64,000 nt of DNA from Ostreococcus lucimarinus. Taxonomy: Eukaryota. The notes under the pieces were generated by a model that was given only the letters and a program-made list of their open reading frames with translations, was not told where the DNA came from and did not search any database. The translations under genes and the position numbers were made by a program. Shown here one piece after another: positions 11,394 through 58,577 of the stretch (its first letter is position 1; each line of letters opens with the position of its first letter). The stretch is from NCBI GenBank assembly GCA_000092065.1, contig CP000597.1; one strand, given 5' to 3'.

Positions 11394-12237
11394 TAGAAAA
11401 TTTGCGACGGTGAGTCGTTTCATATCAAATGTTACACTTACAATACATTTCCTAAAATAATCTGCGATTGCGAGGTCGAAAATCACGCGGTCAGTCGTTG
11501 GTCACGTCCATCGTCGACATCGGCTGGACGAAAGAAAAAGGCACTTGAACTTTAAGAAGTCTAGTTTCTCATCATGCGGATCGGACGGCTCTTCCAGACA
11601 TGAATCATCATCAAGTTCAGCGGCGCCGAGATGGGATGTAATCGCCCGTTTGGCACCGCAAAGTCATTGCTCGAAAGCGAACGGCACGGCTTCCTATCAT
11701 GAAGGCGAAAATCTATGTTGGGCTCTCTTTGGACAGATCTCAATCAACGCAAAGCTCAGGGAACCGTGGCAGAGGAGCCCGTGACGAAAAAAGCTCGAAA
11801 ATGTCGGTGCAACTTAAAGACACGCAACCGAGTATTTGGAACCCAGAGCGCAACACGACGCACGCTTCGGTTGTAGCACGAGACTTGGGACGCGCCCGGC
11901 GATTAATTGACGCCGCACCGCCCGGGGTGAAGGTCTCATGCGAATTCGCGTCCGCGTCGAGCGGCGACGAATGAAATACGACGCGATGAAATGTACCAGC
12001 GAGACAGGTCAACGACGGGTACTGATTAACCCAACATTGGTTTATATCTGGCATAACCAAATATACGCGTCAAAACCCCGCGACGCGGCGAACGGACATC
12101 GCCCCGCCGACGCGAGTGGGTCTCGACGCGAGACGGAGAAAAACAAGTCGCGTCGAAATCGTACGCACCTCTCGCCGCTTCGCAACTATTAAATACACTC
12201 CACCGCGAGCGTCGACCGCGCCGCCGCTTCGCGCGCG

Positions 12238-12570
12238 CTACGTGTGCTCGAAAAATCTGGCGCTGAGCCAATTGAAGTAGACGTACGCGATCGTCCCTGG
12301 GATCAACGCCGGAACGACGCGCGAGTAATACGCGTCCCTCAGCGCCCAATCGATGACTTCTATCCCAGTTTCCAACCGTCGCGTCCCGCTCAGGTCCCCG
12401 ACCACGGACGCGGTCAAGAGTACGAACGCAACCACGGACGCGGCGCACATCGCAACGCCGCGCGCGACGGCGCTCGAGCGCTCCTCCGGTGGATTCCACG
12501 TCCAAGTCGAGCGCCCGCCGCCGAATTCGCTCGCGCGAAGACGCGGCGACGCCGACGCGCGACGGCTCAT
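12238..12570 (-). CDS. Small (110 aa) two-transmembrane-helix membrane protein; weak resemblance to PIG-P/DPM2-type small ER subunits
   Basis: ORF 12238..12612 starts with GTG; first ATG at 12570 (MSRRASASP...). Two hydrophobic segments (AMCAASVVAFVLLTASVV and VVPALIPGTIAYVYFNWL). Codon usage is gene-like rather than pure GC artefact. Family assignment is a guess. Confidence 0.35.
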   Translation of the reverse strand: MSRRASASPRLRASEFGGGRSTWTWNPPEERSSAVARGVAMCAASVVAFVLLTASVVGDLSGTRRLETGIEVIDWALRDAYYSRVVPALIPGTIAYVYFNWLSARFFEHT

Positions 12571-12748
12571 GAGGGCGTCGACGCGAGGCGAACCGTCATG
12601 GGTTCGACGCACGAACGCGCGCGATGGACGCGACGCGCGTGAACGGGCGCGCGCGCGTGTGACGACGCTCTCGCGCGCGACGCCGCCAAACCTACCGCTC
12701 TCGCGCTCGCTATTACGCTACGTGACGCTAATAAATACTACGCGACGC

Positions 12749-13585
12749 TCACGCGACGTCGATCGATCCCGGGAAACGAAACCTAAAATCGACGCACTCG
12801 CGACCTTCCTCCGAAGCCTTGAGCGAATACTTGCTGTCGAATCGAGCGAAAGCGTCGCACCGCGCCCAACCGCGCGGTTGCGCAAAGTCGCGAAACACGC
12901 GGCGCACGTGCTCGGCGTACTCGGCGTCGTCCGTCGCCACGCTCAGCCTGCCTCCCGGTCGCAGCGCCCTTTCGAGCAGGACGAACAGCAGAGGATTCAC
13001 CAAGCGCCTGTGCGCTTTGGATTCGCCGCGCCACGGGTCCGGAAAGTGGCACGCGACTTCGTCCAGCGAGCGCGCCGTGGCGTACGCGTCCAGCACCCAC
13101 AATCCGTCCGCTCTCGACACCTTGACGCGGTCGCCAAGGCCGCGCGCTTCGATTCCCATCAGCGCCTGCGCGACGCCCGGTCGGTGCACCTCGCATCCGA
13201 CGAAGACGTGGTCGTCGAACGCCGCCGCCGAGCTCAACAAGTTATCACCCATCCCGAATCCGACTTCGAGCGCGCGGCGTCGTCCCGCGCCGCGCGTGCC
13301 GAACAGCGCGTCGTAATCCAGCGTCGTCCACAACGCCGCGTCCGTCTCGCGCGCGCGTCGCGACGCACCGTCGTCGCTTCCCGCGTCGCCGCGTCCCTCG
13401 CGCGCGCGTCGCGCCTCGCGCGCGTCGAACGCGACGCCGTGCGCGCCGTACAGCTCTCGCAGCGCGCGCTTCTGCGCCTTGGACGCGCGCGCGCGGCGGT
13501 CGAGGTACGTCTTGTGCCACGGTCGGTCCAGCGCGCGGCCGCGCGACCGCGGCGCGAGCGACGCGTCGCCGTCGAGCGTCGCCAT
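12749..13585 (-). CDS. trmB: tRNA (guanine46-N7)-methyltransferase, bacterial TrmB type (probably organelle-targeted)
   Basis: ATG at 13585. Collinear with E. coli TrmB: ...DYDALFG....LEVGFGMGDNLL (SAM motif LEIGFGMG), G[CI]EVH, and FPDPWRGESKAHRRLV (FPDPWxKxRHxKRR). Confidence 0.8.
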   Translation of the reverse strand: MATLDGDASLAPRSRGRALDRPWHKTYLDRRARASKAQKRALRELYGAHGVAFDAREARRAREGRGDAGSDDGASRRARETDAALWTTLDYDALFGTRGAGRRRALEVGFGMGDNLLSSAAAFDDHVFVGCEVHRPGVAQALMGIEARGLGDRVKVSRADGLWVLDAYATARSLDEVACHFPDPWRGESKAHRRLVNPLLFVLLERALRPGGRLSVATDDAEYAEHVRRVFRDFAQPRGWARCDAFARFDSKYSLKASEEGRECVDFRFRFPGSIDVA

Positions 13586-14397
13586 CGAGTGACGCGCGCG
13601 GACGTCGTCGCGCGACGACGACGCGCATGCGCGACGACGGCGACGCCCGAGCGGTGGCGACGATCGCGCTCGACGCGCGCGCGGCGCGCGAGGACGACGC
13701 GCGACGGATGCGCGACGCGCGCGCGGCGAGGGACGAGGCGGCGAGGCGCGCGGCGCGCGTCGACGCGCGACGACGCGCGGCGCTCTACGAACGCGCGCTC
13801 CGAGACGCGCGTCGCGAGTTCGTCGACGATCTCCGTCGCCGGCACGCCGCGCGAATCGCGCGCGCGTCGTCGTCGCGCGCGCCGACGACGTCCGCGACGA
13901 CGTCCTCGTCGGCGCGCGTCGCCGCCGCGCCGTCGCCGTCGCCCTCGCGCGTCGACGCGACGACCGCGTCGTCGCCGAGCGCGCTCGATTTCCGTTCGTT
14001 CGCGCGTCCGGCGTCGTCGTTCGTCGCGTCGCCGTCGCCGTCGCCGCGTCCGCCGTCGCCCCTCGCGTCGCCGGACGCGCGCGACGTTCGTCTCTGGTCT
14101 CGCGTCGACGCGATGTGTCGAAGCGCCGACCGTCTGCGAGCGCGTCTCGCGTGAGCGCATCGAAACCCGTCGCGCTTCGAGCGGTCGGTCGAGGCGTCGG
14201 AATTCGGTCGTCGTCTCGAATCTAGACATTCTCGCCGCCGTTCGCGCGCGTTCGTTCGCGTTCGTCGTTCGTCGTCGTCCGCGCTGTAAAATTCAAATCT
14301 TCATGTTGTGTCCGTGTGTGAGCTGTCGCGAGTCTCACTCGATCGCCCGTCGGACGCGCGATCGTCCCGCGCGTCGCGCCACGTCGACGCGCGCGAC

Positions 14398-32300: not shown

Positions 32301-32761
32301 GTGCACGTGCCGCCGAGCACGCTCGCGAACGACAACGGAATCATCAACTGCTCCTTCGCCATTCCCGTGGCCTCGGCCCATCGCAGCACGATCGGTATCA
32401 TCACCGCCACCACGGGCGTGTTATTCAAAAATCCACTCACGCACGCGATCGGCAGCATCAATCGCAACTGCGCCCCCGCCGGGGTTCGCGGCTTCCCCAG
32501 CACCTTCCCCATGTACCAGTCCAGCCCCCCCGTCGCGCTGATCCCCGCCGCGACGACGAACAGCGCGCCGACCGTGAGCAATCCCTCGTTCGCGAACCCG
32601 GCGAGGGATTCGGCGAGCGTGATGACGCCGCACAGGTTGAGCGTCGCGACGGCGAGCATCATCGTCCAGTCCGCGGCGACGTAGTCTCGCAGGAGCGCGA
32701 CGAACGCGAGCGCGACGACGACGACGGTGACGGCGGCGTGGAAGTCCGCGGTGGCGCCCAT
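29363..32761 (-). CDS. CitMHS/ArsB-NhaD-superfamily anion permease with internal TrkA-C (RCK_C) domains and an ACT-like insert (YfbS/YbiR-like architecture)
   Basis: ATG at 32761. N- and C-terminal multi-helix permease halves (…LPIACVSGFLNNTPVVAVMIPIV…, …LISNIVTNNAAAALMLPIA…). Central paired TrkA-C-like modules (…GLRGLPGLYLVSVRRNQALL…GDILYFTG…, …GLRSLPGLFLVSIERT…). Additional ACT-like segment MVLGISANDRPGLLHDISQALNRLRVQLL. Confidence 0.75.
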   Translation of the reverse strand: MGATADFHAAVTVVVVALAFVALLRDYVAADWTMMLAVATLNLCGVITLAESLAGFANEGLLTVGALFVVAAGISATGGLDWYMGKVLGKPRTPAGAQLRLMLPIACVSGFLNNTPVVAVMIPIVLRWAEATGMAKEQLMIPLSFASVLGGTCTLIGTSTNLVVQGMVETWTREHAGRGGEVKIGLFDLGLYGVPVALAGIAYVLLASPFLLPKGARRIGSGPRDQRRGEDEEDLLVGARVEGWSPAVGHTVAASGLRGLPGLYLVSVRRNQALLRAIGPEFILNQGDILYFTGMIESLGKVCAEYGLMAITQEYDEDEDEGARETSFDGGDEKDVVAMHSASSIADLQKLARTHAIYKESEGGIYALRKRRQKARPRRSHGSNQDSSDAGSALPLSPGYSSSDGNAYTSGGASDSDDGTARAIKAQALRMYGENLKNALGEARGDGDAMISAKESETALGPPLVTVDVDPDADQNNPEHVGRMVLGISANDRPGLLHDISQALNRLRVQLLHCEASAVGSRSVSIWRLQVLQNTTTKEEITTVIKTLLEPVTGIEAVKRRGQSVVRCSVKPTSSLVGKTPGEADLRVTYGGAIIAVQRGGRAPPGKLNALIFQVGDTLVLQAQDSSPLIKLLEESEDVVVEEDERLAKTREDLEIIGHGSGTMNTGKEFLIAVRIEATAKNFIGKTAVESGLRSLPGLFLVSIERTRSIVSVGAAAVVAMVESPADRTTVIDPSEPLEANDVMWYAGGANAIASLRRVPGLAPYSSDQVDKLEISSHDRRLIQAVVAKTGDLVGKSIRDIKFRTRFNAVVIAVHREGARVHSRIGDVVLHPGDVLLLDAGEDFKQSARAQGAFALISVLDDSTPPRLRLLIPSLLCALAMISLYTAGVMELFTAAVLAAAVMIASGTLTQQEARNAIKWDVIVTIAGAFGISRAMQNSGVAEAVAKKLVALGRVTNTGEIGLLVAVYLATFLISNIVTNNAAAALMLPIAASAAESENIALEKMAFLLMLAASASFMSPFGYQTNLMVYGPGGYVFADFIKFGFPMQITLLIVSIVVLGVGDDAIWIPYVVIVVAFVVVVVATTVGFRAAWTAVVDRAARSRAARHRRRGSDIEPTADVELGGAIATAAST

Positions 32762-32849
32762 CGCGGGCGTCGAGCCGCGCGACGAGACGCGCGACGCCGC
32801 GCGCGACGCCGCGCGTCGTCAGAGAGTGACGCGGCGAGGAGGTCGAGAG

Positions 32850-33202
32850 ATGTCTCGCGCGCTCGTCGCGCTGAGCGCCGCGCTCGCGCTGAGCGCGCGA
32901 CGCGTCGACGCGAACGATGTCGTCGACGACGCCGCGCGGACGCGAGACGCGCTGACGTCGCGATTGACGACGAAAACGGTGCGACTCGAACGATTCGCGA
33001 CGGATTTGGAATCTCTAGCGGCGAATGATTACGACGAGTACGCCGCGTCGAGCGGGTATTTCGCGCTCAATCGCACGACGAAGGACGCGCACATGTTTTA
33101 CACGTTTTTTGATGCGCGCTCGGGAGGCGCGGAGAGCGAGGACGCGATCCCAATCATTCTGTGGCTCACGGGCGGACCGGGATGTTCTTCGGAATTGGCA
33201 GC
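32850..33202 (+). CDS. Serine carboxypeptidase (peptidase S10), exon 1 (signal peptide through GGPGCSSELA)
   Basis: ATG at 32850 (MSRALVALSAALALS, signal-peptide-like). …SGYFALNRTTKDAHMFYTFF… and IILWLTGGPGCSSELA match the S10 N-terminal consensus. Exon ends in phase 2 before GTGCGTG. Confidence 0.75.
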
Positions 33203-33303
33203 GTGCGTGTCGTCGGCGCGCGCGCGCGCACGCGCGATCTTTCGCGTCTTGAACGATACAGGAGAGGGACGCGACACTGACTGACCACCGTCTTCCACAC
33301 TAG
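33203..33303 (+). other. Spliceosomal intron (101 nt, GT..AG) in the serine carboxypeptidase gene
   Basis: Donor GC|GTGCGTG at 33203. Branch-like ACTGACTGAC ~25 nt upstream of the acceptor CACTAG| at 33303. Splicing restores the conserved S10 motif GCSSELA-A-LYENGPFAF, which is otherwise split between the two supplied ORFs 32727..33284 and 33353..34531. Confidence 0.75.
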
Positions 33304-34531
33304 TCTATACGAAAACGGACCGTTCGCGTTCGACGAAGACGACGCGACGAAATTGAAGCGACGCAAATACGCGTGGAACGACGCCGGAAGGTTGCTTTAC
33401 GTGGACTCGCCGGTGAACACGGGATTTTCGTATTCGAGCTCGCGGCGCGACGCGGCGAAGGACGAGACGACGGTGGCGAACGATTTGTTGGAGTTTTTGT
33501 ACGCCTTCATGTTGAGTAGACCGATGCTCGTGGATGCGCCGGTTTACGTCACGGGAGAATCGTACGCGGGGCACTATGTGCCGGCGTTCGCGAGGGCGAT
33601 TTTCGACGCCAACGCTCGAGACGATGGACCCGTGAGAATAAATCTTCAAGGCTTAGCCATCGGAAATGGGCTGACGGATCCCGCTATTCAGTACGCGGCG
33701 TACGCGGATTATTCGCTCGGGAACGACATCGTGAGCGCGGCGACGGTGAAGCAAACGGCGAAGAAATTACCGTCGTGCGTGGAGAAAATCAAGTCGTGCG
33801 CGAGCGGTAAAACGTCGAGCAAGGAAAATCGCGCCGAATGCTTGGACGCGGTGGATTCGTGCCAAGCCATTCCTGAGGCATTGCTCGAAGATGCCGCTGA
33901 ACGCAACGGTGGGAAGGCAATCAACGTGTACGACATACGTAAATCGTGCGACGCCGAGCTTTGTTACGATTTCAGCGCCGCGGAAGCGTTTTTGAACCGT
34001 AAAGACGTTCAAGAAGCGTTCGGGGTGAGTAAGAAATGGGAAATGTGCGACGCGAGCGTGCACCAAGATATGATGGGGGATTGGATGCACGACTACGAGA
34101 CGTTGATTCCAGACATGATCGAGGCCGGGATTCGCGTGATGATTTACGCCGGCGAGGATGATTTCATCTGCAACTGGCTCGGAAATCTTCGCTGGGTGAA
34201 GGCGATGCAATGGAACGGACGCGAAGCGTTCAACGCCGCACGTCCTGAGCCTTTCATCATCCAGGGTGCGGGTGACGGCGAAGACGACGTTGTGGGTGGC
34301 GACGTGCGCGAACACGGCGGTTTATCCTTCGTAAAGATCAGCGAAGCGGGACACATGGTACCTATGGATCAGCCACGAAACGCGCTGACAATGATTCAGC
34401 GCTTTGTGAACAACGAACCGATCGCGCGCGGTCGAGGTGGTGACGAGCCGAAACTCTCCGCTGCACCACGACGTTTCGGCCCCGTCGAAGACGACGTCGT
34501 TGGCCGCCTCGCTGTGGCGACTCAGAAATGA
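33304..34531 (+). CDS. Serine carboxypeptidase (peptidase S10), exon 2 (catalytic Ser through C-terminus)
   Basis: LYENGPFAF… continues the S10 fold. Catalytic serine motif VTGESYAGHYVP. Downstream …DDFICNWLGN… and …GHMVPMDQP (catalytic His region). Stop at 34529-34531. Confidence 0.8.
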
Positions 34532-34615: not shown

Positions 34616-36031
34616 CTATTTCAAAATTTTATCCAGCTTCGCTTGCCAGAGTTCTTGTCTCGCGCACACCGCCTTTGGGTTGCTCACTTGCAGCTTCGAG
34701 AATTCAGACGAGTTGTTCAAGTTGATCCACGCCGCCAAAATCGTGCTCTTTTTCTCCAAAGCTTTCTTCGCGTCGACGTCGGTCAACGAATACATCAAAG
34801 TATCCCAAAGTGCGACGTTGATTTCGCCCGACGTGAAGAATTCACGGAAGAACAAACCATTGACGTCTTCCTCCGTGACTTTTTTGCCTTTGCCCACCGG
34901 CGACGTTGGGCGAAACGCGCAATCGCCGAAAATATCATACGCGAGCTTGATCGTGCGGTTAAACGATGCCTGCATGTCTCCTGCATCTTGAGGCGTCATG
35001 TCCTTGTTTTCGCGCATCTCCTCGTTCAACCAGCTCTTGATTGGGATGAAGAAACCCTCCGGCGCCGTTCGCATCATAGCAAAGTACCGCAAAACCAACT
35101 CCCGATCGCGCATGCGCAGATGCGGCGTCTTCGATCGATAAACTTTCAACAAATTCTCGTTTTTGACCAATTCTTCCAGCAAGTCGGTGTACATCCCTTG
35201 GTAGATGCAGTTTCTCAACTCTTGTTCGTTCAACTGCGTCGCGCCCATGTTTAAGCGCTCAAACACTTCAAACACAAAATCCGGCTGCGACGATCGTGAG
35301 ATCGTGTGCACGTTCAGAGGGTAGTCTAAAATCGTCTCTTGAAATCGTTCGTGCAAGTCCGTGAACGTCAACCCGTTCAAGTCTTCGTAAACCTCCAACC
35401 CGGTCAGCCTGAACGGAGATCCATCCGGAAATTCACACTGAATAAAGCTCCAAATCGACGTCAAACGCTGCTTGCCATCCACCACCTCTAGCTTCCCACT
35501 CTGCGTCTCGTGAAAGAACATCGTCGGTACGGGAATGTTTAAGATCAAAGACTCTATGAGCTTACTCGCCGTGCGAACCGTCCACACGTATTCTCTCTGA
35601 TAACTCGGTCGCAAGTTCACCTTGCCGCGATTAATCTTGTCGATGACACTATTCACCGTGAAATCCGCTTTTTGTATTTGCAGCGCCGCGCGATCGACCT
35701 TGAACAACGTTTCCTCTAAATCTGCGAACAAGTCCTCGTCCACGTCGTCCTGCGCGCTGGATTTTCGCGAAAACGCCGCGTTTCGCGGCGTCGCCTCGCT
35801 CGCGCCCACGTGTTCCCACAGCGAATCATCATTCGCGTCCGCTACCGCGCTCGCGGCGTCGCCCAGGGACGTCTCATTCCAGAGTTCTTTGTCTTGTTCG
35901 TCCCCGAGCAAGGCGCGAGGCGTTTGAGGGCGCGAGCGCCGCGTCGTTCGCGCCGATGTCCCGCGAGAGTGATTCTGGCGGGAAAGTGGTTTCACCGGCG
36001 TCGCGCGCGCGCTGCGCGCGTAAACCATCAT
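34616..36031 (-). CDS. DUF262-domain protein (ParB/sulfiredoxin-fold NTPase-like domain found as the N-terminal half of GmrSD type IV restriction enzymes), stand-alone, in a eukaryotic gene
   Basis: ATG ATG at 36031/36028. Core DUF262 signature …RPSYQREYVWTVRTASKLIESLILNIPVPTMFF…LEVVDGKQRLTSIWSF… (QREYVW + DGQQRLT-type motifs). Downstream …FERLNMGATQLNEQELRNCIY… No HNH/DUF1524-type nuclease motif in the C-terminal half. Low-complexity ~120-aa N-terminus. Confidence 0.75.
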   Translation of the reverse strand: MMVYARSARATPVKPLSRQNHSRGTSARTTRRSRPQTPRALLGDEQDKELWNETSLGDAASAVADANDDSLWEHVGASEATPRNAAFSRKSSAQDDVDEDLFADLEETLFKVDRAALQIQKADFTVNSVIDKINRGKVNLRPSYQREYVWTVRTASKLIESLILNIPVPTMFFHETQSGKLEVVDGKQRLTSIWSFIQCEFPDGSPFRLTGLEVYEDLNGLTFTDLHERFQETILDYPLNVHTISRSSQPDFVFEVFERLNMGATQLNEQELRNCIYQGMYTDLLEELVKNENLLKVYRSKTPHLRMRDRELVLRYFAMMRTAPEGFFIPIKSWLNEEMRENKDMTPQDAGDMQASFNRTIKLAYDIFGDCAFRPTSPVGKGKKVTEEDVNGLFFREFFTSGEINVALWDTLMYSLTDVDAKKALEKKSTILAAWINLNNSSEFSKLQVSNPKAVCARQELWQAKLDKILK

Positions 36032-36248: not shown

Positions 36249-37724
36249 TTAAGACGAACGACGCTCCAGGACGTCATCGTGGGCTAGAACTATGACTTTT
36301 GACGGACGACGACCGATCGAGACGGACGGCTCGCTGACGCCGAAGAGGACTTCGGAAAAGAGAGCCTCATCCACGCCATCGAGGGCGTCCATGTCGACGT
36401 CTTCGGGCCATTGCATGCGTCTGCGAAGTATGTCGAACCAGTTCGGGGCGAAGACGGCGGTGCGAGCGCGCTCAGACGTCTCCGCGGTGAGACGCGCTCG
36501 CTCGATGGCGTCGCGGAAATCGTGCAGGCGCGCGCGATAACGCTCCATCGCGACGATATCCTTTCGTCGGCGAGCCAACTGACCGTCGTAATAGTTTAAT
36601 AACGTTTGTTCACCTCCGTCGCGGGTGATAAGAGCGTTGACCTCGTGCGCCAGCTCGATGATGGTGCTCGCGGAGTCGATCGGATTGGCCATCAAATGCG
36701 GCGCATACGCGTACATCGTCATAGCGTCGTCCGCGTCCGACGTCACCGCGATCGAGAGCTCGAAACCGGGTGGAAAATTTTCCTTAGCGTACGCAAATAG
36801 CGAACGCAACACGCGAATCGACTCCTTGTACTCGTCGTCGTCGTACAAGAATTTCCCGTCTTCGTCGCCACCCCAGACGAGAGACAGCGACACCACGAAT
36901 TGATTGCACGCCTCTGGGCATCGTGATCGCCGAAAATCCAGCGCGGCGTCTACGATCAACTTTTCATTCCTTTCCATGAAGGCCACTTTATCGCTCAATC
37001 GCATGGGCATGACGATCGATCGCGGAAGCACCTCCGCCAGCGCCGATCGCGAGAGCGTTCGCTTGCTCCGCTCTCGCGCCGCCACCGTTGCCGCGAACGC
37101 CCGCACGCCCTCCGTTCGAGCCTCTAAAAACGAATACACTAACGTATCCTTATACATCTCCGGCTGATCCACGACCGCCGATCGCGCGTTCAACCACCCT
37201 TTCCCCCGCCGCTTGACGACGTTGCCCAACCGGTACCCGCCGCCGCGTTTATTCACCGGAATCTTCCAAAGCTCGCGCGCGTCCCGCACGACCAGCGCCC
37301 AAGCGCTCGCCGAACGCTCGACCGTGAAACTCGTGCTCTCGTACACCGGTCGAGGGTTCGCCAACCACGCGTCGACGTCGAATTCATCGGTTTCCGTCGC
37401 CTCGCTCGTCGTCGTCGCGTCAACACCCAAACGCGCCGCGTCAGGAACCGCGTCGCGGCGCACGTTCAGCCATCCCGCGTTCGAGACGCCGAGCGCGTGC
37501 GTTTCGCGCGGTGCGATCGGCGTCGTCGCGCGCGCCAGCGCGCACGCGCCGAGCGCACCGAGCGCGCCGAGTCCGACCGCGAGCGCCAACACCCTCGGCG
37601 TTCGCGCGCGCGCGTCGCTCGTGCGCGCGCCAAGTGACGCGCGTTCGACGTCGACGACGCGTTCGACGTCGCGCTCGAGCAGCGCGGCGTCTTCGCGCGG
37701 CGTCTCGGCGCGGGCGCCGGACAT
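36249..37724 (-). CDS. Hypothetical type II membrane protein (N-terminal signal anchor); possibly a Golgi glycosyltransferase-like enzyme, family not recognised
   Basis: ATG at 37724. Hydrophobic anchor VLALAVGLGALGALGACALARA ~40 aa from the N-terminus. Long lumenal domain with gene-like codon usage. No diagnostic motif I can name. Confidence 0.4.
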   Translation of the reverse strand: MSGARAETPREDAALLERDVERVVDVERASLGARTSDARARTPRVLALAVGLGALGALGACALARATTPIAPRETHALGVSNAGWLNVRRDAVPDAARLGVDATTTSEATETDEFDVDAWLANPRPVYESTSFTVERSASAWALVVRDARELWKIPVNKRGGGYRLGNVVKRRGKGWLNARSAVVDQPEMYKDTLVYSFLEARTEGVRAFAATVAARERSKRTLSRSALAEVLPRSIVMPMRLSDKVAFMERNEKLIVDAALDFRRSRCPEACNQFVVSLSLVWGGDEDGKFLYDDDEYKESIRVLRSLFAYAKENFPPGFELSIAVTSDADDAMTMYAYAPHLMANPIDSASTIIELAHEVNALITRDGGEQTLLNYYDGQLARRRKDIVAMERYRARLHDFRDAIERARLTAETSERARTAVFAPNWFDILRRRMQWPEDVDMDALDGVDEALFSEVLFGVSEPSVSIGRRPSKVIVLAHDDVLERRSS

Positions 37725-37829: not shown

Positions 37830-40340
37830 CTAGAGATTACACGCCTCGGCACCGCACGCTTGGACGACGCTTGGTCGCTCGGTGCCGACGCCGTCGAACG
37901 GGACGTCGCTCGAGGCAACGAAGACGACTTGTTCGGGCGCAGACGCGCACTTGGGTAAGAATTCCAGGACTTCGCCGATGATGGTGGTGTGCTCGTAACC
38001 AGCGCGTTTTAGCGCTTCGACCGCGGCGTCGGCGCTGGCGCTCGGGAGGGAGGCTAACATCCCGCCCGCGGTTTGCGGATCAAAGAGAAGAGGGTAACGC
38101 GCGGCGCCGGATACGGCGGCTGGATTTGCGATGGCACGCGCCAAGCGCACATTGGCCGGCTGAAGCGAGCTCGTAATGCCGATTTCGACGCACTCTAACG
38201 CCCCAGGAAGCACTGGGAGGGCGTCCATGTCGAGCACGCACGCGGCGCTGCTTCCTTTGCACATCTCCACCAGGTGACCGAGCACGCCGAATCCCGTGAC
38301 GTCGGTGCACGCCGTGGCGCCGTGTTCAAACAAGGTTCGAGCGGCGACCGCGCTGGGCTGTCTCATAGAATCCAAGGCATTGGACACCCACCGTCCCTGC
38401 GCTTTTGATCGCATGTCCGCCGCGAATAGCGTGCCGGTGCCGATGGGCTTGGTGATGATGATTTTGTGACCGGCTCGCATGCCGCCCTTCTTCATCAACT
38501 TTTCCCGCGGTGCGGCGCCGTGCACGGAGAATCCCAGCGATAACTCAGCGCCCTCGGAACTGTGACCGCCGGCCAATCCACATCCAGCGTCGCGTAAAAT
38601 ATCGCACGCACCCGCCATCATTTGATACAACGTCTCCTCCACTTGCGATTCCAATCCGTACGGCACCGTCGCGATTGCAAGCGCGGCGTGCGGGTCGGCA
38701 CCCATGGCCCAGCAGTCTCCGAGCGCGTGCACGGCGGCAATTTGGCCGAAAATGTAAGGGTCGTCCACGAAAGCGCGGAAATAGTCCACGGTCTGCACGC
38801 CAACCATGCCGTCGGGCACAGAAACTACGGCAGCGTCGTCGGGTTGATCGATTCCAACCTCGACGTTCGGGTTCGTCGGAATCGGCTCGAGGCGCTTCAT
38901 CACGCGCGACAGCGTCGTGGCGCCCACCTTGGCGCCACAGCCACCACATCGCATCGGCACCGCGCGAATGGCGGCCATGGTATCTGAGCCCGCGGCGAGC
39001 GCCACTGCGGGTTGCTCGACCTCCGCTTCCTTCATTTCTGGTATCTCTTGATACATTTTCATCCATTTACGGTCAATTTTGTCCTTCCATCGCCACAGGC
39101 GCTCGCCCACGGGGCCGAGACCGCCGAGGGCGAGGTTGCCGTAAGACAACACCGCAGACTTACCGCCGGTGGTGATTAAACCCAAAAATAATTTTTGCGG
39201 GGTGAAATCGACTAAAGGTTCCCCCAGCAACGCACGACGTAGGTTCTTGTCCAACGGAGGCCCTTGACGCACCGCGAAGACTCCCGCCTTTGGTCGCGGA
39301 TGTTTCAGCACGTTTGCAACGTCCCCGGCGGCGAAGATGTTCTTGTGCGACGTCGACTCGAGCGTGGGATTGACTTCGATGAAACCGTTTGCGTCCAACG
39401 CCAAGTTCGTGGACTCGCGCAACCATTTGGCCGCGCCCGCTTGCGTGCACCAAATGCACTCGTCGGCGGAGACGACGCGACCGCTCTCGAGCGTCAATTT
39501 CCCTTGCTCGGCGGTAACCACGCCGTCGCCTTCGATGACGTCCACCCCCGACTCGGCGAAAATATTTAGAAACGTCTTGCGCACCCGCTTAGCGTGCGAC
39601 GGCATCAACGTCCCGCGCGTCACGAGCGTGAACTTGGCCAAGTTTTCATCCATGCCGCGCCGTTTCAACTCCTCTCGCGTGCGATGTCGCATCGAAAGCG
39701 CGAGTTCGGCGCCCCCAGCGCCTCCTCCGACGATCACAACCTCGCAATGCTTCCCCGATTCAATCACGCGTCGCAGCATTGCCTCCCATCGCGCGTTAAA
39801 CCCACATATCGGCTTCACCGGCGTCGCGAACGCCTCCGCGCCTCGCACGTCGCCCGCGCGCGGCGCGATGCCCACGTCAACGCTCGCCACGTCGAATCGC
39901 ACCCCCGGCCTCCCACTCTTCACGATCACTCGCCCATCGTCGTGATCGATCCCGATCGCTTCATCGTGCACGATTCTGAATCCTCCGTTCCGGCACAGCG
40001 GTTCTAAATCCACGCGCGTCTCGTCGTCTTCGTAGTGTCCCGCGACGGCGCCCGGCAGCATGCCCGAGTACGGCGTGTGCAGGTCTTTCGCGATCAGCGT
40101 CACCCGCACTCCCGGCATCGGCGTCATCGCGAGCGATTTCAGCACGTACACGTGCGCGTGACCGCCTCCGACGAGCACCAGGTCCTTGATCGTCGGCGTC
40201 GCCGCGCGCGAGCCGCGCATGTCTGCCGACGACGAAATTGCACTTTTTGTCCCGCGCGTCCCGAAGCGTTTTCTTCGCGACGCGGCGACGAACGACGACG
40301 GGACTCGACGCGGAAGCGCGTGCGAGCGCGCGCTCGGCAT
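37830..40340 (-). CDS. selD: Fusion protein: N-terminal FAD/NAD(P)-binding pyridine nucleotide-disulfide (NADH dehydrogenase-like) oxidoreductase domain + C-terminal selenophosphate synthetase (SelD/SPS, Cys-type)
   Basis: N-terminal Rossmann motif LVLVGGGHAHVYVLK, second dinucleotide motif CEVVIVGGGAGGAELA, and …IFAAGDVA…. C-terminal half aligns with SelD: PMRCGGCGAKVGATTL (cf. E. coli GAGCGCKISP, Cys not Sec at the catalytic position), …DDAAV…, AIR-synthase-like fold motifs …GHSSEGAELSLGFSV…, …VTGFGVLGHLVEM. ATG at 40340. Confidence 0.85.
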   Translation of the reverse strand: MPSARSHALPRRVPSSFVAASRRKRFGTRGTKSAISSSADMRGSRAATPTIKDLVLVGGGHAHVYVLKSLAMTPMPGVRVTLIAKDLHTPYSGMLPGAVAGHYEDDETRVDLEPLCRNGGFRIVHDEAIGIDHDDGRVIVKSGRPGVRFDVASVDVGIAPRAGDVRGAEAFATPVKPICGFNARWEAMLRRVIESGKHCEVVIVGGGAGGAELALSMRHRTREELKRRGMDENLAKFTLVTRGTLMPSHAKRVRKTFLNIFAESGVDVIEGDGVVTAEQGKLTLESGRVVSADECIWCTQAGAAKWLRESTNLALDANGFIEVNPTLESTSHKNIFAAGDVANVLKHPRPKAGVFAVRQGPPLDKNLRRALLGEPLVDFTPQKLFLGLITTGGKSAVLSYGNLALGGLGPVGERLWRWKDKIDRKWMKMYQEIPEMKEAEVEQPAVALAAGSDTMAAIRAVPMRCGGCGAKVGATTLSRVMKRLEPIPTNPNVEVGIDQPDDAAVVSVPDGMVGVQTVDYFRAFVDDPYIFGQIAAVHALGDCWAMGADPHAALAIATVPYGLESQVEETLYQMMAGACDILRDAGCGLAGGHSSEGAELSLGFSVHGAAPREKLMKKGGMRAGHKIIITKPIGTGTLFAADMRSKAQGRWVSNALDSMRQPSAVAARTLFEHGATACTDVTGFGVLGHLVEMCKGSSAACVLDMDALPVLPGALECVEIGITSSLQPANVRLARAIANPAAVSGAARYPLLFDPQTAGGMLASLPSASADAAVEALKRAGYEHTTIIGEVLEFLPKCASAPEQVVFVASSDVPFDGVGTERPSVVQACGAEACNL

Positions 40341-40457
40341 GCACGCGCGACGGGCGCGAGTCGCGCCGCGCGCGCGTCGAGGTGTGCGGGGACGATCGCG
40401 CGATTCACGACGACGACGACGACGGACAAAGCGGCGCTGCGGGGTGTGACTACAAGA

Positions 40458-41573
40458 CTAGAAGCGACCGCCGCCGAAGATGCGACGTAAAATAAATCGA
40501 ATGATCTGCTGAAGGATGCGCGCGCCGAAGGTGGCGACGAATCTGACGAACGCTATTCGAGCGACTCGAGCGGCGCCGACGGCGAGCTCCACGAGCGGAT
40601 TCACGCCCACGACGGAACCGGGCGGTGGAGGCGCTCTCGCGCCGCGCGCGGCGCCCGCGCTCGTCGATTGTTGACGCCAAGGATCTTGCGCGCCGCCGCC
40701 GCGACCGACGACGCGTTCGGTGACGCTCTCGCTCACGACGCCGTTCGGCGCTCGAGATCGAACGACGCGCCGGATAACCGTCTCCCCTCGCGCGTTCACG
40801 TACGACGTCTCCGAGATCTCGTTCGCGACTTGTTCGCTGAACAACGTTTTGAATAAATCGTTCAAATCGTACGCGCTCATCCCGCGCCCGAACGCGAACC
40901 CTCCCGCGCCGAACCCCGGCGCGCCGAATCCCGGCGCGCCGAATCCCGGCGCCCGCCCTCGCGTCGCCGCTTCCCGCATCGCTCGCTCGAGCTCGCGTAT
41001 GAAACTCGACGAATCGTTCCCAAACATTTCCCTAAACACCCTCTCCGCGTCCTCGCGCGTGAAATCTCGCCTGTACTCGTACCCGTACCCTCCCGGCGTC
41101 TCGCCGCCGCGACGCGCGTTCGCCGCCCGCGCGCGTCTCGCGAAATCCTCCGCGCCGCCGCCGCGTCCTCCCCCTCCAGACGCCCTCGCGCGTCGCTCTC
41201 CCCCCCCCGGCGCGCTCAGCGCCTGATACGCCGCGCTTATCCTCTTGAATCGCGCCTCCGCGCGCGCCTTCGCGTCGCCCTGGTGCCGGTCCGGGTGCCA
41301 CTTCAGCGCCTCCCGTCGATACGCCCGCTTCACCTCGTCCGCGCTCGCGCCGCGCGCGACGCCGAGCAGCGCGTGCGGATCGTCCTCGATCGTCGACGCG
41401 GCGTACGCGCGCGCGGATTCGCGACGCCGCGCGTTTCCGTCGCGCCGTTGAAAATCATCCGTCGCGCCTCGCGTCGCCTCCCGGACGCGCGACGCGACGC
41501 GCGCGGCGTCCGACGCGCGCGCCGGACGCGCGCCGGACGCGCGCTTTCCGACGCGCGACGCGACGCGCCGCAT
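40458..41573 (-). CDS. DnaJ (J-domain) co-chaperone with Gly/Phe-rich region
   Basis: J domain [36 protein letters not shown]…[11 protein letters not shown] contains the HPD tripeptide. G/F region [22 protein letters not shown]. Arg-rich N-terminal ~60 aa could be a presequence. ATG at 41573. Confidence 0.8.
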
Positions 41574-41682
41574 CGCGAATCCGCGCGTCGCGGAGTGACG
41601 CGCGCTTTATCCATCGGTGTGAGAACGTGGTCGGCACTCATCGCCGCGCGCGCGTCGCCGCGCGTCGCGGTTCGAGCGCGCG

Positions 41683-43683
41683 ATGCGCGTCGCGACGTCC
41701 GCGACGTCCGCGCGCGCGCTCGGCGCGCCGTCCCTCGCGCGCGCCGTCCCTCGCGCGCCGCGAATCGCGCGCGCGAACCGCGCGCGATGGATGAAGCGCG
41801 CGCGCGCGACGACGACGACGCGCGACGACGCGACGAGAGACGACGACGACGCGCGCGCGGCGACGATTCACGTGCCGTCGCTCGTGCGGCGCATGCGAGC
41901 GATCGCGCGGCGCGGATGCGCGATCATTCGAGAGGTGACGGAGGGCGGCGACGTCGGCGCGCGGGACAAGGGCGGCGCGCAGCGGGCGGACGGGACGTAC
42001 GTGGCGGACGCGCAGACGGAGGCGGATCGACGCGTGGAGGCGATGGCGATCGGTGCGCTGCGAGCGTTTTCGAAGGATTTGAATCTGGTGGCGGAGGAGA
42101 GCTTCGAGTGCGCGGCGACGATCGAGGCGTACGCGGGGGCGGGGGAGTGGACGACGATCGCGGATCTGGAGGCGGAGGACGAGGACGAGGCGGACGAGAC
42201 GTGGGCGCCGGAACTGAGAAAACCGATCGCGGCGTCGAGGGTGGCGGTGTATTGCGATCCGTTGGATGGGACGAACGAGTACGCGGCGGGTGAGCGGGAG
42301 GCGATCACGGTGCTGTTGGGGGTGGCGGTGGACGGGACGCCGCGCGCGGGGGTCATCGGACAGCCGTTTCACGAGCGCGGGAAGAGCGAGGATTTGGGTC
42401 GGGTGGTTTGGGGAGGCGCCGGCGTCGGCGTGCACGGATTGGACATCGCCGAAGACGCGCTGGCGCCGCCCGTGCCGCCGCACGGCGCGCACGTGGTGGC
42501 GGTGAATAGGAATTTACGAGAAAACAGACAGGCGCCCGTGCTCGAGGCGTTGCAATCGCGCGTGGACGTCGTCATCAGCGCCACGGGATTTCATTATTTG
42601 ATGCTCCTGGAGCGGCGCGCGCACAGCGCTTTATTACTTAGGAAAGCGTCAAAGAAGTGGGACACGTGCGCGGGGGAGGCGCTGCTGCGTGCGACGGGAG
42701 GAATCGTCACCGACACCGTCGGTCGGCGGTACGACTACTCGTACAACTTGAACGCGTTGCCGAATCTGAGCGGCATGGCGGCGAGTTTAGACGTCGGCAT
42801 GCACTGCGAGATGACGGGAATCATTCGAGACGTCATCGAACCGCTCGGTGATTATCCGTACGACGTCGATGATCCCTCCATCAGACCGAGCGTGCTCGAC
42901 GGCGTGCAAACGCCCGCCGGCGGCTGGCGCGCCGTCACGGTGGACGTCGGCGGATGTCTCATCGAGCCTCGCGAACGCGTCGCTGACGTGTACGCGCGCA
43001 CCGCGCGCTCGATCGGTATCGATTACGTAACCAGCGAAACCGCGTCGCACGATTTCAAAGAGGCTTTCGCCAAGTTTCGCGGCTCGGATGAACCGAACGC
43101 CATGCGATACTACGACGACGGGAAATCGTTTTGGCGTAAAGTCATCGCGCACGTGTTATCGCGCGGCGGGGCTCGAGCTTCCGCGGATGACGCCGTCGTG
43201 GAAACGATGTTGACGAAGCTGTATGAATATTACGAGCACCCGAGCGCGTGGTACGTCGCGCACGGCGCCGTCGACGCCATCTCCCGACTCCGAAGATCCG
43301 GCGTCAAAGTCGCCGTGGCGTCGAATTGGGATTCCAGGTTACCTAAACTTTTGGAATCCCTCGATTTGGCGCGACATTTCGACGCCATCGTCGTCTCAGC
43401 CATCGAAGGGTGCGAAAAGCCATCCAAAGAGTTCTTCACGAAGTGTCTCAACGCCGTGGACGTCCCCGCGTCTGCGACTTTACACGTCGGCGACGACGAG
43501 CGAAACGACGTCTCCGGCGCCGTCGCCGCCGATTTCGCGTGCGCCGTCCTGTGGGCGCCGCCGCGTCCCGCCACCGCTTCCAGTCCCGCCCCCGCCCCGC
43601 GCGTGCGAGACTTCAACGAGCTCACCGACGCGATATTATCCGCCAACCGCGCGCACGTCACCCACAAACACTATTTTCAGTAA
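41683..43683 (+). CDS. Two-domain fusion: inositol-monophosphatase-family / 3'(2'),5'-bisphosphate nucleotidase-like domain + HAD-superfamily (subfamily IA) hydrolase domain
   Basis: ATG at 41683. IMPase-family metal-binding motifs …VYCDPLDGTNEYAAGE… and …WDTCAGEALLRATGGIVTD. C-terminal HAD motifs: …AVTVDVGGCLIEP (motif I DxG-type), …KVAVASNWDSRL… (motif II), …HVGDDERNDVSGA (motif IV). Confidence 0.75.
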   Translation: MRVATSATSARALGAPSLARAVPRAPRIARANRARWMKRARATTTTRDDATRDDDDARAATIHVPSLVRRMRAIARRGCAIIREVTEGGDVGARDKGGAQRADGTYVADAQTEADRRVEAMAIGALRAFSKDLNLVAEESFECAATIEAYAGAGEWTTIADLEAEDEDEADETWAPELRKPIAASRVAVYCDPLDGTNEYAAGEREAITVLLGVAVDGTPRAGVIGQPFHERGKSEDLGRVVWGGAGVGVHGLDIAEDALAPPVPPHGAHVVAVNRNLRENRQAPVLEALQSRVDVVISATGFHYLMLLERRAHSALLLRKASKKWDTCAGEALLRATGGIVTDTVGRRYDYSYNLNALPNLSGMAASLDVGMHCEMTGIIRDVIEPLGDYPYDVDDPSIRPSVLDGVQTPAGGWRAVTVDVGGCLIEPRERVADVYARTARSIGIDYVTSETASHDFKEAFAKFRGSDEPNAMRYYDDGKSFWRKVIAHVLSRGGARASADDAVVETMLTKLYEYYEHPSAWYVAHGAVDAISRLRRSGVKVAVASNWDSRLPKLLESLDLARHFDAIVVSAIEGCEKPSKEFFTKCLNAVDVPASATLHVGDDERNDVSGAVAADFACAVLWAPPRPATASSPAPAPRVRDFNELTDAILSANRAHVTHKHYFQ

Positions 43684-58060: not shown

Positions 58061-58577
58061 GTGCGCTTAAATACGAGCGTCGGGATCATGAATCCGCGCG
58101 CGTCGTCCGTCGCCCGCAGAGCGCGCCCGCGCGTCGCGCGCGCATGCCGCCCTGCGCCGACGACGACGTCGCGGCGATCCTCGCCGTCGCGCGCGCCGAG
58201 CTCCGCGTCGCGACGACGCGCCGCGTCGCGTCCGCGGCGACGCGGCTTCGCGCGTGCGAGCGCGCCTCCGTCGACGCCGCGCGCGCGTGCGCCGCGCGCG
58301 CGACGGCGGTGCGCGCGAGCGCCGATCGCGCGACGCGCGCGACGCGCGACGCGCGACGCCGCGTCGCGGTCGTCGCGTCCGCGGCGACGCGCGCGCGGCT
58401 CGAGCGCGCGCTCGAGCGCGCGGCGGCGGCGCTCGAGCGCGCGCGAGCGCTCGAGCGCGCGTGCGATCGCGCCGTCGCGGCGACGCGCGCGAAGGCGCGA
58501 GGGACGGCGTGAGGGACGCGAAGACGCGTCGACGCGCGTCGCGCGCGCCGGCGTCGACGCGATTGCGTGTAATTTAA

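Follow-up and report, generated by a model that had tools for sequence, protein, structure and literature searches.

DUF262 and ParB-Type Proteins in Prokaryotes and Viruses

Among the described systems closest to the gene considered here are the type IV restriction or PT-sensing proteins GmrSD, BrxU, SspE and DndI, in which a DUF262 NTPase fold bearing a DGxQR motif is accompanied by a helical middle domain and by DUF1524. In SspE, GmrSD and DndI the DUF262 domain acts as a sensor of modified DNA (PMC12065111, PMC11662687). Work with BrxU revealed an ATP-driven switch from dimer to monomer (PMC8565348), and in DndI the hydrolysis of ATP was found to modulate the affinity for DNA (PMC11662687). 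The role of the DGxQR motif has been described for these last two proteins, in both of which DNA cleavage resides in the HNH domain and DUF262 hydrolyses NTP only (PMC8565348, PMC11662687). Moreover, DUF262 relatives of the DndB type regulate transcription (PMC12065111). A related architecture is found in NsnA, the predicted sensor of the anti-phage Menshen system NsnABC, whose ParB-DUF262 and ParBDB (NsnA-C) domains were defined in PMC12065111 and whose operon partners are NsnB (ABC ATPase plus DUF3696) and NsnC (inPIN plus effector). DUF262 proteins of about 300-480 aa are also encoded by eukaryote-associated giant viruses (Indivirus, Catovirus, Hokovirus, Tunisvirus, Yasminevirus and Tetraselmis virus 1). 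In the CTP clamps ParB, Noc and KorB, a ParB/Srx-fold nucleotide domain with GERRxR as its nucleotide motif is followed by a DNA-binding domain of the HTH type. Finally, solitary bacterial proteins combining DUF262, ParBDB and HNH are exemplified by those of Sinorhizobium medicae (P0278), Nostoc sp. (L094) and Leptolyngbya, Halomicronema and Oscillatoria (L088-L093, MCG8365519 cluster), none of which, to our knowledge, has been characterised experimentally.

As for eukaryotes, the literature mentioning DUF262 or PF03235 dealt with prokaryotes or their viruses among the matches listed. A phylogenomic study of GmrSD notes only three eukaryotic genomes, of which it names one (Thalassiosira) and does not name the green clade, and a paper on the evolution of the chloroplast nucleoid makes no mention of ParB or DUF262. 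No paper describing the eukaryotic clade reported below was found, the identifiers Mp5g12430, CBR_g17162 and A0A7R9XST9 giving nothing, and the clade appears to be unstudied.

A Complete DUF262 Gene in Ostreococcus lucimarinus

The window analysed, a stretch of 64,000 nucleotides of contig CP000597.1 from Ostreococcus lucimarinus, contains on its minus strand (34616..36031) a complete single-exon CDS that runs intact from ATG to stop (34616-34618) and encodes 471 aa. This reading frame, present in the ORF list and alignable to its orthologs over the full length, is the Ostreococcus member of a green-lineage clade of NsnA-like DUF262 proteins, and all the features given below lie on the same strand. 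An identical protein sequence exists in a public collection, and its 90% cluster includes UniRef A0A7R9XST9, named for Ostreococcus. An earlier note on this DNA had read from the letters a DUF262 product of this length, with native-looking third codon positions and in a eukaryotic nuclear setting, and proved right on each of these points. The two signature strings on which it relied, SYQREYVW and VDGKQRLTSI, occupy aa 143-150 and 184-193, and the Pfam model PF03235 (GmrSD_N/DUF262) matches aa 128-277 (model positions 3-198 of 199; E=3.2e-29) with 102.9 bits, far above the cut-off of 33.2.

Regarding codon usage, the GC3 of the gene is 0.69, within the 0.62-0.80 of the 23 other long ORFs of the window, and its low overall GC (0.53) has its source in codon positions 1 and 2. 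The neighbours are eukaryotic genes, namely a serine carboxypeptidase S10 with an apparent intron, a Pyr_redox_2+SelD fusion, and FAST/RAP, DnaJ and KH genes, with the next gene lying just 84 bp past the stop codon. Seven nearby ORFs, both flanking genes included, gave no match to a defence family, and neither NsnB nor NsnC was found among them, so that membership of a Menshen system was rejected.

Domain Architecture and Comparison with Known Systems

The description of the product as a stand-alone DUF262 protein turned out to be inexact, because its C-terminal 190 residues form a second conserved and well-folded domain of the NsnA-C/ParBDB type. In the AF2 model aa 118-471 are confident and make up two domains: a ParB/Srx-fold, NTPase-type DUF262 domain (aa 118-280; 35192..35680) and an all-helical C-terminal domain with predicted DNA binding (aa 281-471; 34619..35191). 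The PADLOC model of NsnA, the Menshen sensor, matches aa 98-468 (model positions 29-381 of 385; E=1.5e-81), and this end-to-end match therefore points to a ParB-type NTPase domain plus a helical ParBDB DNA-binding domain. The architecture is thus the same as that of NsnA, but the Ostreococcus gene is monocistronic, eukaryotic and without either operon partner nearby. The PADLOC models of PD-T4-2 and GmrSD/SspE also match, SspE weakly (0.0024), and a search against NCBIfam gave no match. The absence of a partner nuclease domain, which had been noticed before, was borne out: neither PF07510/DUF1524 nor PF01844/HNH, ParBc, HTH or any other Pfam domain was found in the 471-aa protein at E<=1.

The best structural matches to the AF2 model are BrxU, SspE and DndI (solved structures 7p9k, 6jiv and 9jfl). 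The DUF262 NTPase fold, the DGxQR motif and the helical middle domain are shared with the GmrSD/BrxU/SspE/DndI group, but DUF1524 is missing from the Ostreococcus protein, which resembles them in sequence only around the motif (E about 1e-4 when compared with PDB sequences). Next come ParB-family proteins, including CTP/CDP-bound ParB; KorB, Noc and sulfiredoxin are likewise among the fold matches. The clamps share with the algal protein the succession of a ParB/Srx-fold nucleotide domain and a DNA-binding domain, with Foldseek probabilities of up to 0.96, but the likeness is weak (structural E 0.01-0.5), and where they use GERRxR and HTH the Ostreococcus protein has DGKQR and ParBDB. The giant-virus proteins have a similar fold, aligned over ~370-400 columns (BFVD, E down to 1e-11), but are only 15-17% identical to it.

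Three motifs are recognised in the DUF262 domain. Motif I, QREYVW (QRxxxW; 35582..35599), is unchanged at Q145, R146, V149 and W150 across 66 sequences from eukaryotes and 42 from bacteria, and motif III, FERLN (FExxN; 35249..35263), is nearly invariant in both clades. Motif II, DGKQR (35465..35479), corresponds to the nucleotide gamma-phosphate motif DGxQR, of which Q and R are invariant in both clades and D and G in all but one eukaryotic sequence (65/66). Its residue K187 is a signature of the eukaryotic clade, position 187 being K in 66/66 eukaryotic and Q in 42/42 bacterial sequences. Judged from the alignment, the NTPase motifs are all intact, with DGKQR as the signature of the eukaryotic clade; the Q-to-K change in DGxQR, together with a K253-to-V change, could have altered or abolished hydrolysis.

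Loss of the Nuclease and Origin of the Clade

The closest family had been sought by the earlier note among GmrSD/BrxU/SspE enzymes with DUF262 and DUF1524, a placement that has to be revised: the protein is rather of the NsnA-like ParB-DUF262 plus ParBDB type, and specifically related to the bacterial solitary DUF262-ParBDB-HNH (PF01844) clade. The nearest prokaryotic relatives are 35-40% identical over ~350 aa across both domains (E 1e-72 to 1e-85) and carry a C-terminal HNH of the form CxxC...DH...N...H. Common to this bacterial clade and the eukaryotes are motifs I-III (except for DGQQR/DGKQR), the helical domain and the condition of a single gene, neither NsnB nor NsnC having been found beside the closest bacterial relatives, which are solitary genes. 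In contrast, only the bacterial proteins have a C-terminal linker with an HNH of ~65 aa, a short acidic N-terminus and DGQQR, whereas the eukaryotic ones have a long basic extension and DGKQR. The HNH tail is absent from all 66 aligned eukaryotic sequences, which end just ahead of it, and no HNH remnant was found within the window of 64 kb (tblastn E>0.3). Since more distant relatives (L095, L096 and L019) also have HNH, its loss is the parsimonious reading, and ancestry in the solitary clade means that the missing nuclease is the canonical HNH that this ancestor had at its C-terminus. On entry into eukaryotes the HNH domain was lost, a long, fast-evolving basic N-terminus was gained and DGKQR became fixed.

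In the trees, all of them neighbour-joining, the eukaryotic copies group together as a single clade (bootstrap 100/100) with the bacterial solitary HNH clade, itself at bootstrap 91, as its sister group, and the canonical short NsnA-like proteins of Pseudomonas (L099, L100, L104) are outgroups. The eukaryotic subtree is roughly species-tree-like, with Mesostigma basal and the streptophytes apart from the prasinophytes. Prasinophytes, Mesostigma, Chara, Spirogloea, liverworts and ferns host the clade, and the hit lists contained no member from seed plants, mosses or core chlorophytes; this patchy distribution shows that many lineages can do without the function, which agrees less readily with a core role in the nucleoid. 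The orthologs of Marchantia, Riccia and Chara lie on chromosomes or scaffolds of 2.5-56 Mb, and the genomes carry apparently one or two copies where named ones were checked. The proteins of Ostreococcus and Marchantia are about 52% identical, and transcripts of clade members are present in MMETSP and in one fern transcriptome. Moreover, the SelD-fusion/DUF262/CitMHS synteny recurs in one Mamiellales-like contig (L167), and RAP, ACT and KH neighbours in another (L169).

Regarding selection, comparison of the core with the sequence P0002 gave pN = 0.063 and pS = 0.72, that is, a dN/dS of about 0.03 with saturated synonymous sites, whereas comparison with P0001 (98% identical) was uninformative for dN/dS because it offers only ~11 differences. 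Eukaryotic monophyly, the likeness of the subtree to the species tree, synteny, GC3 and constraint therefore identify the gene as an ancient, domesticated bacterial gene and not contamination, as the earlier note had suspected, and one inherited vertically since its acquisition under strong purifying selection. The best-scoring named prokaryotic matches come mostly from filamentous cyanobacteria. A cyanobacterial (endosymbiotic) origin is not supported, the eukaryotes never grouping with the cyanobacterial subclade in 100 NJ bootstraps, with long-branch effects as a caveat; no red-algal or glaucophyte member was among the matches obtained. A recent viral source or a viral copy was rejected, the best IMG/VR match being 38% identical, INPHARED phages about 32% at most and the giant-virus proteins of BFVD 15-17%.

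The N-Terminal Extension

The first residues of the protein (aa 1-43; 35903..36031) form a basic, hydroxyl-rich and acid-free stretch, disordered in AF2, whose presequence-like composition could correspond to an organelle transit peptide: the first 40 residues include 10 R/K and 10 S/T, and the first acidic residue (D/E) is at position 44. A short motif just past the basic stretch, ALLGDEQDKELW (aa 40-51; 35879..35914), is conserved in the alignment of Mamiellales orthologs. It is followed by a variable, acidic and disordered linker (aa 52-117; 35681..35878), the last ~18 residues of which (helix 100-109 and beyond) enter the fold, as indicated by pLDDT and by the start of the NsnA match at aa 98. 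Altogether, aa 1-112 are predicted to be disordered (AF2 pLDDT <50), leaving ~115 disordered residues ahead of the fold, in agreement with the eukaryote-style low-complexity N-terminus noticed earlier. This part of the protein is also fast-evolving, with a pN of 0.53 for aa 1-117 vs 0.06 in the core.

When one N-terminally incomplete model was left out and the bacterial relatives taken were those without an added N-terminal domain, the core motif was located at positions 105-345 in eukaryotic orthologs vs 59-90 in HNH-clade bacterial relatives, ~20-280 residues further from the N-terminus. Within the first 40 residues the eukaryotic orthologs typically have 0-2 acidic and 4-10 basic residues, and those bacterial relatives 7-13 acidic ones, many of the ortholog N-termini being metagenomic gene calls whose start may be wrong. 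Because a basic, acid-poor extension, which is also Ser/Thr-rich and fast-evolving, is present in every ortholog, the eukaryotic proteins may be targeted to organelles; a nuclear localisation signal, or plain disorder, would account for the basic N-terminus equally well.

Proposed Function and Alternative Explanations

The explanation that we favour, with moderate confidence, is that the green-lineage orthologs derive from a bacterial DUF262-ParBDB-HNH enzyme and work as an NTP-gated DNA-binding switch without a nuclease of their own, probably delivered to an organelle. The ancestor would have been a one-protein bacterial enzyme made of a ParB-type DUF262 NTPase, a helical ParBDB and a C-terminal HNH nuclease. 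As in BrxU, DndI and SspE, the DUF262 domain, by binding and hydrolysing nucleotide, would govern dimerisation and the DNA affinity of ParBDB, and the protein would act by occupying DNA or recruiting a partner, cutting nothing itself. The N-terminal extension would direct import into the plastid or mitochondrion and thereby action on the nucleoid, this being the least secure step. By analogy with these enzymes, the most likely function would be that of an NTP-gated DNA binder or sensor, and strong purifying selection together with the presequence-like N-terminus inclines us to a housekeeping or organellar role more than to an arms-race one. The roles put forward by the earlier note, namely modification sensing, antiviral defence and nucleoid biology, are all candidates.

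A somewhat unlikely alternative is that the protein serves innate immunity as a sensor in the nucleus or cytosol. It would then retain the ancestral task of detecting foreign or modified DNA, for example that of prasinoviruses or other giant viruses, and an effector encoded elsewhere in the genome would replace the HNH in cis. The context of the family is anti-phage throughout, as reflected in the matches to the NsnA, PD-T4-2 and GmrSD/SspE models, DUF262 senses modified DNA in SspE, GmrSD and DndI, and giant viruses encode structurally similar DUF262 proteins (BFVD). Mamiellales hosts, moreover, are under heavy giant-virus pressure. However, the extreme conservation of the core over roughly a billion years, with about 52% Ostreococcus-Marchantia identity, a dN/dS of ~0.03 and, where named genomes were checked, what seem to be one or two copies each, is unlike that of typical arms-race genes; the locus is stable and syntenic, neither an outlier nor an island, and no effector partner was found among the seven nearby ORFs. 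We also know of no comparable DNA-virus pressure in multicellular liverworts or ferns.

It is unlikely that the protein acts instead on nuclear chromatin or transcription, either by reading a mark on host DNA (5mC, 6mA, 4mC) or by serving as an NTP-dependent repressor of the KorB/DndB kind. KorB and Noc do figure among the structural matches, DndB-type relatives regulate transcription (PMC12065111), the Arg-rich N-terminus could serve as a nuclear localisation signal, and the prokaryote-derived 4mC system of Marchantia indicates that such marks exist in the lineage. Against this, no methyltransferase link was found, the tie to the Marchantia 4mC methyltransferase being a lead only; an extension at the N-terminus, which all orthologs share, is not required for nuclear import, and the Pfam search revealed no chromatin-interaction module in the sequence.

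That the ParB/Srx-fold domain itself cuts DNA despite the loss of HNH is quite improbable. The ParB-like superfamily was historically annotated as nuclease and ParB/Srx-fold domains have at times been regarded as nucleases in themselves, so that nuclease-less here denotes the absence of a domain and is not a proof; entries for the pNOB8 'ParB domain protein nuclease' and a 'ParB-like nuclease domain' are indeed found among the fold matches. Nevertheless, the assignment of cleavage to HNH and of NTP hydrolysis alone to DUF262 in BrxU and DndI (PMC8565348, PMC11662687) speaks against it, and an unregulated cutter would be hard to keep for so long without a protective modification. Lastly, that the gene is bacterial contamination, was transferred horizontally very recently or is a decaying pseudogene, as a bacterial family and an intronless gene might suggest, is effectively refuted by eukaryotic flanks (one with an apparent intron), synteny repeated in other Mamiellales-like contigs, host-like GC3, orthologs on large Marchantia, Riccia and Chara scaffolds (2.5-56 Mb), existing transcripts, an ORF intact under purifying selection and a best viral match of only 38% identity.

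Significance

The reading of a nuclease-free, organelle-delivered switch can be extended, tentatively, to the proposal that a ParB-type NTP switch derived from a bacterial restriction enzyme was kept by the green lineage for about a billion years and is imported into plastids or mitochondria to act there as an NTP-dependent nucleoid clamp or sensor. If this were true, it would represent a ParB-like part of organelle genome maintenance, or a surveillance of modified or foreign DNA, and the patchy losses would follow changes in organelle DNA handling. Research on DUF262/ParB-type NTPases has dealt almost exclusively with their part in bacterial anti-phage sensing, and here a defined eukaryotic clade, strongly constrained, has retained just the half that comprises the sensor/NTPase and DNA binding. 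With two genetically tractable hosts, Ostreococcus tauri and Marchantia polymorpha, the clade offers a natural experiment on the DUF262-ParBDB module without its nuclease, and its members are candidates either for a DNA-surveillance factor of prokaryotic origin, at work in algae and early land plants, or for a nucleoid protein of organelles not described before.

Domain architecture

The DUF262 gene is a 471-aa ORF running from ATG to stop on the minus strand of the window (34616..36031), and its product is a two-domain NTPase and DNA-binding protein of bacterial origin whose ancestral nuclease is gone. As originally proposed in an earlier note made from the sequence, the protein carries the PF03235 (GmrSD_N/DUF262) domain (aa 128-277; E=3.2e-29; 102.9 bits versus a cut-off of 33.2), its sole significant Pfam domain, and both quoted motifs were found with their coordinates verified. 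The claimed absence of a nuclease also held, as neither DUF1524, HNH nor any other Pfam domain appeared even at E<=1, and an NCBIfam search gave no match. The description as a single-domain protein had to be abandoned: the PADLOC model of NsnA matched over its full length (E=1.5e-81; aa 98-468 on model positions 29-381 of 385), with a weaker second match to PD-T4-2_A, and an AlphaFold2 model (45-sequence alignment as input; mean pLDDT 78) revealed a confident two-domain fold at aa 118-471 preceded by disordered residues (aa 1-112). A profile search against PDB sequences retrieved exclusively DUF262 proteins, all of them weakly. In the Menshen anti-phage system NsnA is predicted to be the sensor (PMC12065111); it combines a ParB-type DUF262 NTPase domain with a helical DNA-binding domain, named ParBDB, which is also found mid-protein in GmrSD, SspE and DndB (Li et al. 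2025, PMC12065111).

Distribution in the green lineage

A homologue search over 5.8 billion proteins returned a graded series, with Ostreococcus-like sequences at 76-98% identity to the window protein and other prasinophyte-type sequences at 54-70% (61% for a Mantoniella entry), to which cluster look-ups added orthologs from Pycnococcus, Pseudoscourfieldia and Picocystis. The next matches came from Chara braunii, liverworts (Marchantia, Riccia, Calypogeia), ferns (Adiantum, Pteridium, Ceratopteris), Spirogloea, Cymbomonas and Mesostigma, and several orthologs map to chromosomes or scaffolds 2.5-56 Mb in length. The exact window protein is present in a public collection, and its 90% cluster holds an Ostreococcus-named UniRef entry together with MMETSP and Tara transcripts. 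Altogether, conservation and expression of an NsnA-like DUF262 protein extend across the green lineage. Seed plants, mosses, hornworts, lycophytes, core chlorophytes, red algae and glaucophytes were absent among the best 120 matches of both lists (down to ~236-260 bits); on the basis of these best 120 matches the gaps may be read as true patchy loss, and losses of this kind would be unexpected for an indispensable housekeeping function. One EukProt entry, under the name Diacronema (Pavlova) lutheri, shares the 90%-identity cluster of the relative P0056 with Picocystis sp. ML proteins, and is probably culture or assembly contamination and not a haptophyte ortholog.

Bacterial relatives and loss of the nuclease

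Prokaryotic matches start at ~40% identity to the window protein. These relatives share the two-domain core and extend it by a linker and a C-terminal HNH of ~65 aa (PF01844; CxxC...DH...N...H), with an extra N-terminal GcrA-like domain in some, whereas all the eukaryotic sequences end right after the last ParBDB helix, at the exact start of the bacterial linker. Since more distant relatives (L095, L096, L019) carry the HNH too, it is parsimonious to suppose that the eukaryotic stem lost it. No HNH remnant was found in the window, and the next gene lies just 84 bp from the stop codon of the DUF262 gene. The bacterial genes are solitary, with neither an NsnB ATPase nor an NsnC effector beside them.

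A scan of GTDB genomes gave filamentous cyanobacteria (Leptolyngbya, Halomicronema, Oscillatoria, Nostoc) as seven of its eight best matches, six of the seven (Nostoc excepted) having a variant HNH with DH changed to AH or AR. The same change of the catalytic DH, together with the tail NARLDHRFCHKSR, is seen in the cyanobacterial subclade of the bacterial relatives (L088-L093; P0084-P0089), and this variant may represent an attenuated or altered nuclease.

Conserved motifs, selection and the N-terminal extension

The motifs QRxxVW, DGxQR and FERLN are invariant or near-invariant in both the eukaryotic and bacterial clades. The second provides a clade signature (window 35465-35479), DGKQR in 66/66 eukaryotes versus DGQQR in 42/42 bacteria, and is paired in eukaryotes with a K253-to-V change next to motif III (FERLN), a combination that looks like a relocated positive charge in the nucleotide site. 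Measured against the ortholog P0002 (76-79% identical), the core (aa 118-471) has a pN of 0.063 versus a saturated pS of 0.72, which gives a dN/dS of ~0.03, and the N-terminal 117 codons reach a pN of 0.53.

The core motif stands at position 105-345 in eukaryotic orthologs (one N-terminally incomplete model left out) and at 59-90 in HNH-clade bacterial relatives without an added N-terminal domain. In the eukaryotic proteins, many of whose N-termini are automatic gene calls, the initial 40 residues typically contain 0-2 acidic and 4-10 basic residues, whereas the N-termini of those bacterial relatives contain 7-13 acidic ones; the window protein reaches its first acidic residue only at position 44, within ALLGDEQDKELW, a motif conserved among Mamiellales. 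Judged by its composition, the extension looks like a textbook organelle presequence added to a bacterially derived protein, and an organelle would be the single most likely localisation, with about an even chance of being the right one.

Phylogeny and origin

In a neighbour-joining tree (128 sequences; 343 core columns; 100 bootstraps) the 66 eukaryotic sequences were monophyletic (100/100) and the 42 HNH-bearing bacterial sequences formed a separate clade (91/100), with canonical short NsnA-like proteins outside both groups. An origin of the eukaryotic sequences within the cyanobacterial subclade received no support, this grouping occurring in 0/100 bootstraps, although long-branch effects may have masked it. 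Within the eukaryotic clade Mesostigma is basal and the streptophytes (Chara, Spirogloea, liverworts, ferns) stand apart from prasinophytes, in a broadly species-tree-like arrangement. Eukaryotic monophyly, HNH-bearing outgroups, the species-like subtree and synteny together indicate a single ancient acquisition followed by vertical descent. The viruses matched are implausible as recent donors or recipients: identity to the window protein is 38% for the best IMG/VR match, at most ~32% for phage records and 15-17% for giant-virus DUF262 proteins, which have the fold in common. In BFVD the latter (from Indivirus, Catovirus, Hokovirus, Tunisvirus and Yasminevirus, among others) are ~300-480 aa long and alike in fold over ~370-400 aligned columns; a DUF262 protein of Tetraselmis virus 1 matches more weakly (E=7e-3).

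Genomic context

Native codon usage, as suggested earlier, was borne out by a GC3 of 0.69, inside the 0.62-0.80 of 23 other long ORFs; the low overall GC of the gene (0.53) is due to the first and second codon positions, i.e. to amino-acid composition. Along the window GC varies strongly, 2-kb bins ranging between 0.51 and 0.71 (12001-14000 and 40001-42000 noted), and the ORF at 58086-59336 has a GC of 0.78.

The flanking genes are eukaryotic and include a serine carboxypeptidase S10 (32727-34531, plus strand), which occupies two ORFs in different frames (...GGPGCSSELAA, then LYENGPFAFDEDD...), probably because a short spliceosomal intron interrupts it near 33180-33300; the related contig L170 shows this split as well. 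Also nearby are an orphan ORF, a Pyr_redox_2+SelD fusion, a CitMHS/TrkA_C transporter, and FAST/RAP, DnaJ and KH proteins, and a defence-model search matched none of these genes. The 836-aa fusion (37830-40340, minus strand) joins a pyridine-nucleotide-disulphide oxidoreductase to a selenophosphate synthetase (AIRS/AIRS_C). Between it and the DUF262 gene lies the orphan ORF (36249-37724, minus strand; 491 aa), which has a hydrophobic stretch near its N-terminus and neither Pfam nor PADLOC match; in the Mamiellales-like contig L167 the fusion is immediately upstream of the DUF262 gene, with no equivalent of the orphan in between. The order found in that contig (Inositol_P/HAD, glycosyltransferase, DnaJ, SelD fusion, DUF262, CitMHS) is, glycosyltransferase excepted, that of the window, and a second such contig retains RAP, ACT_ACR9 and KH neighbours.

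Proposed function

In both BrxU and DndI, NTP hydrolysis depends on the Q and R of DGxQR, and the nucleotide, through its binding and hydrolysis, governs whether the dimer dissociates and how tightly DNA is bound (PMC8565348, PMC11662687). The window protein would be a DNA-binding switch or sensor gated by NTP; it would exert its effect through DNA occupancy or partner recruitment, not cleavage, and probably in an organelle. An antiviral sensor working with an effector in trans is a rival reading, but an arms-race role is disfavoured by the very slow evolution of the core and the stable synteny. A nuclear reader or repressor is a second rival. As to the third, a residual ParB-fold nuclease, cleavage in BrxU and DndI is the job of a separate HNH domain (PMC8565348, PMC11662687).

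Significance

Members of the clade bear automatic labels in public databases (DUF262/GmrSD_N-containing or hypothetical), and a literature search by their gene identifiers found nothing. Going by part of the literature on DUF262 or PF03235, it concerns prokaryotes or their viruses throughout; the GmrSD phylogenomics paper covers only three eukaryotic genomes and does not include the green-lineage clade, and the Menshen paper is restricted to bacteria (PMC12065111). Judging by these labels and searches, the clade is a eukaryotic branch of the NsnA-like DUF262 proteins, set apart by its missing HNH and its N-terminal extension, that appears not to have been described before. Its weight is tempered by the frequency of prokaryote-derived orphan domains in algae and by a function that is inferred; its assets are a clean evolutionary case and tractable hosts.
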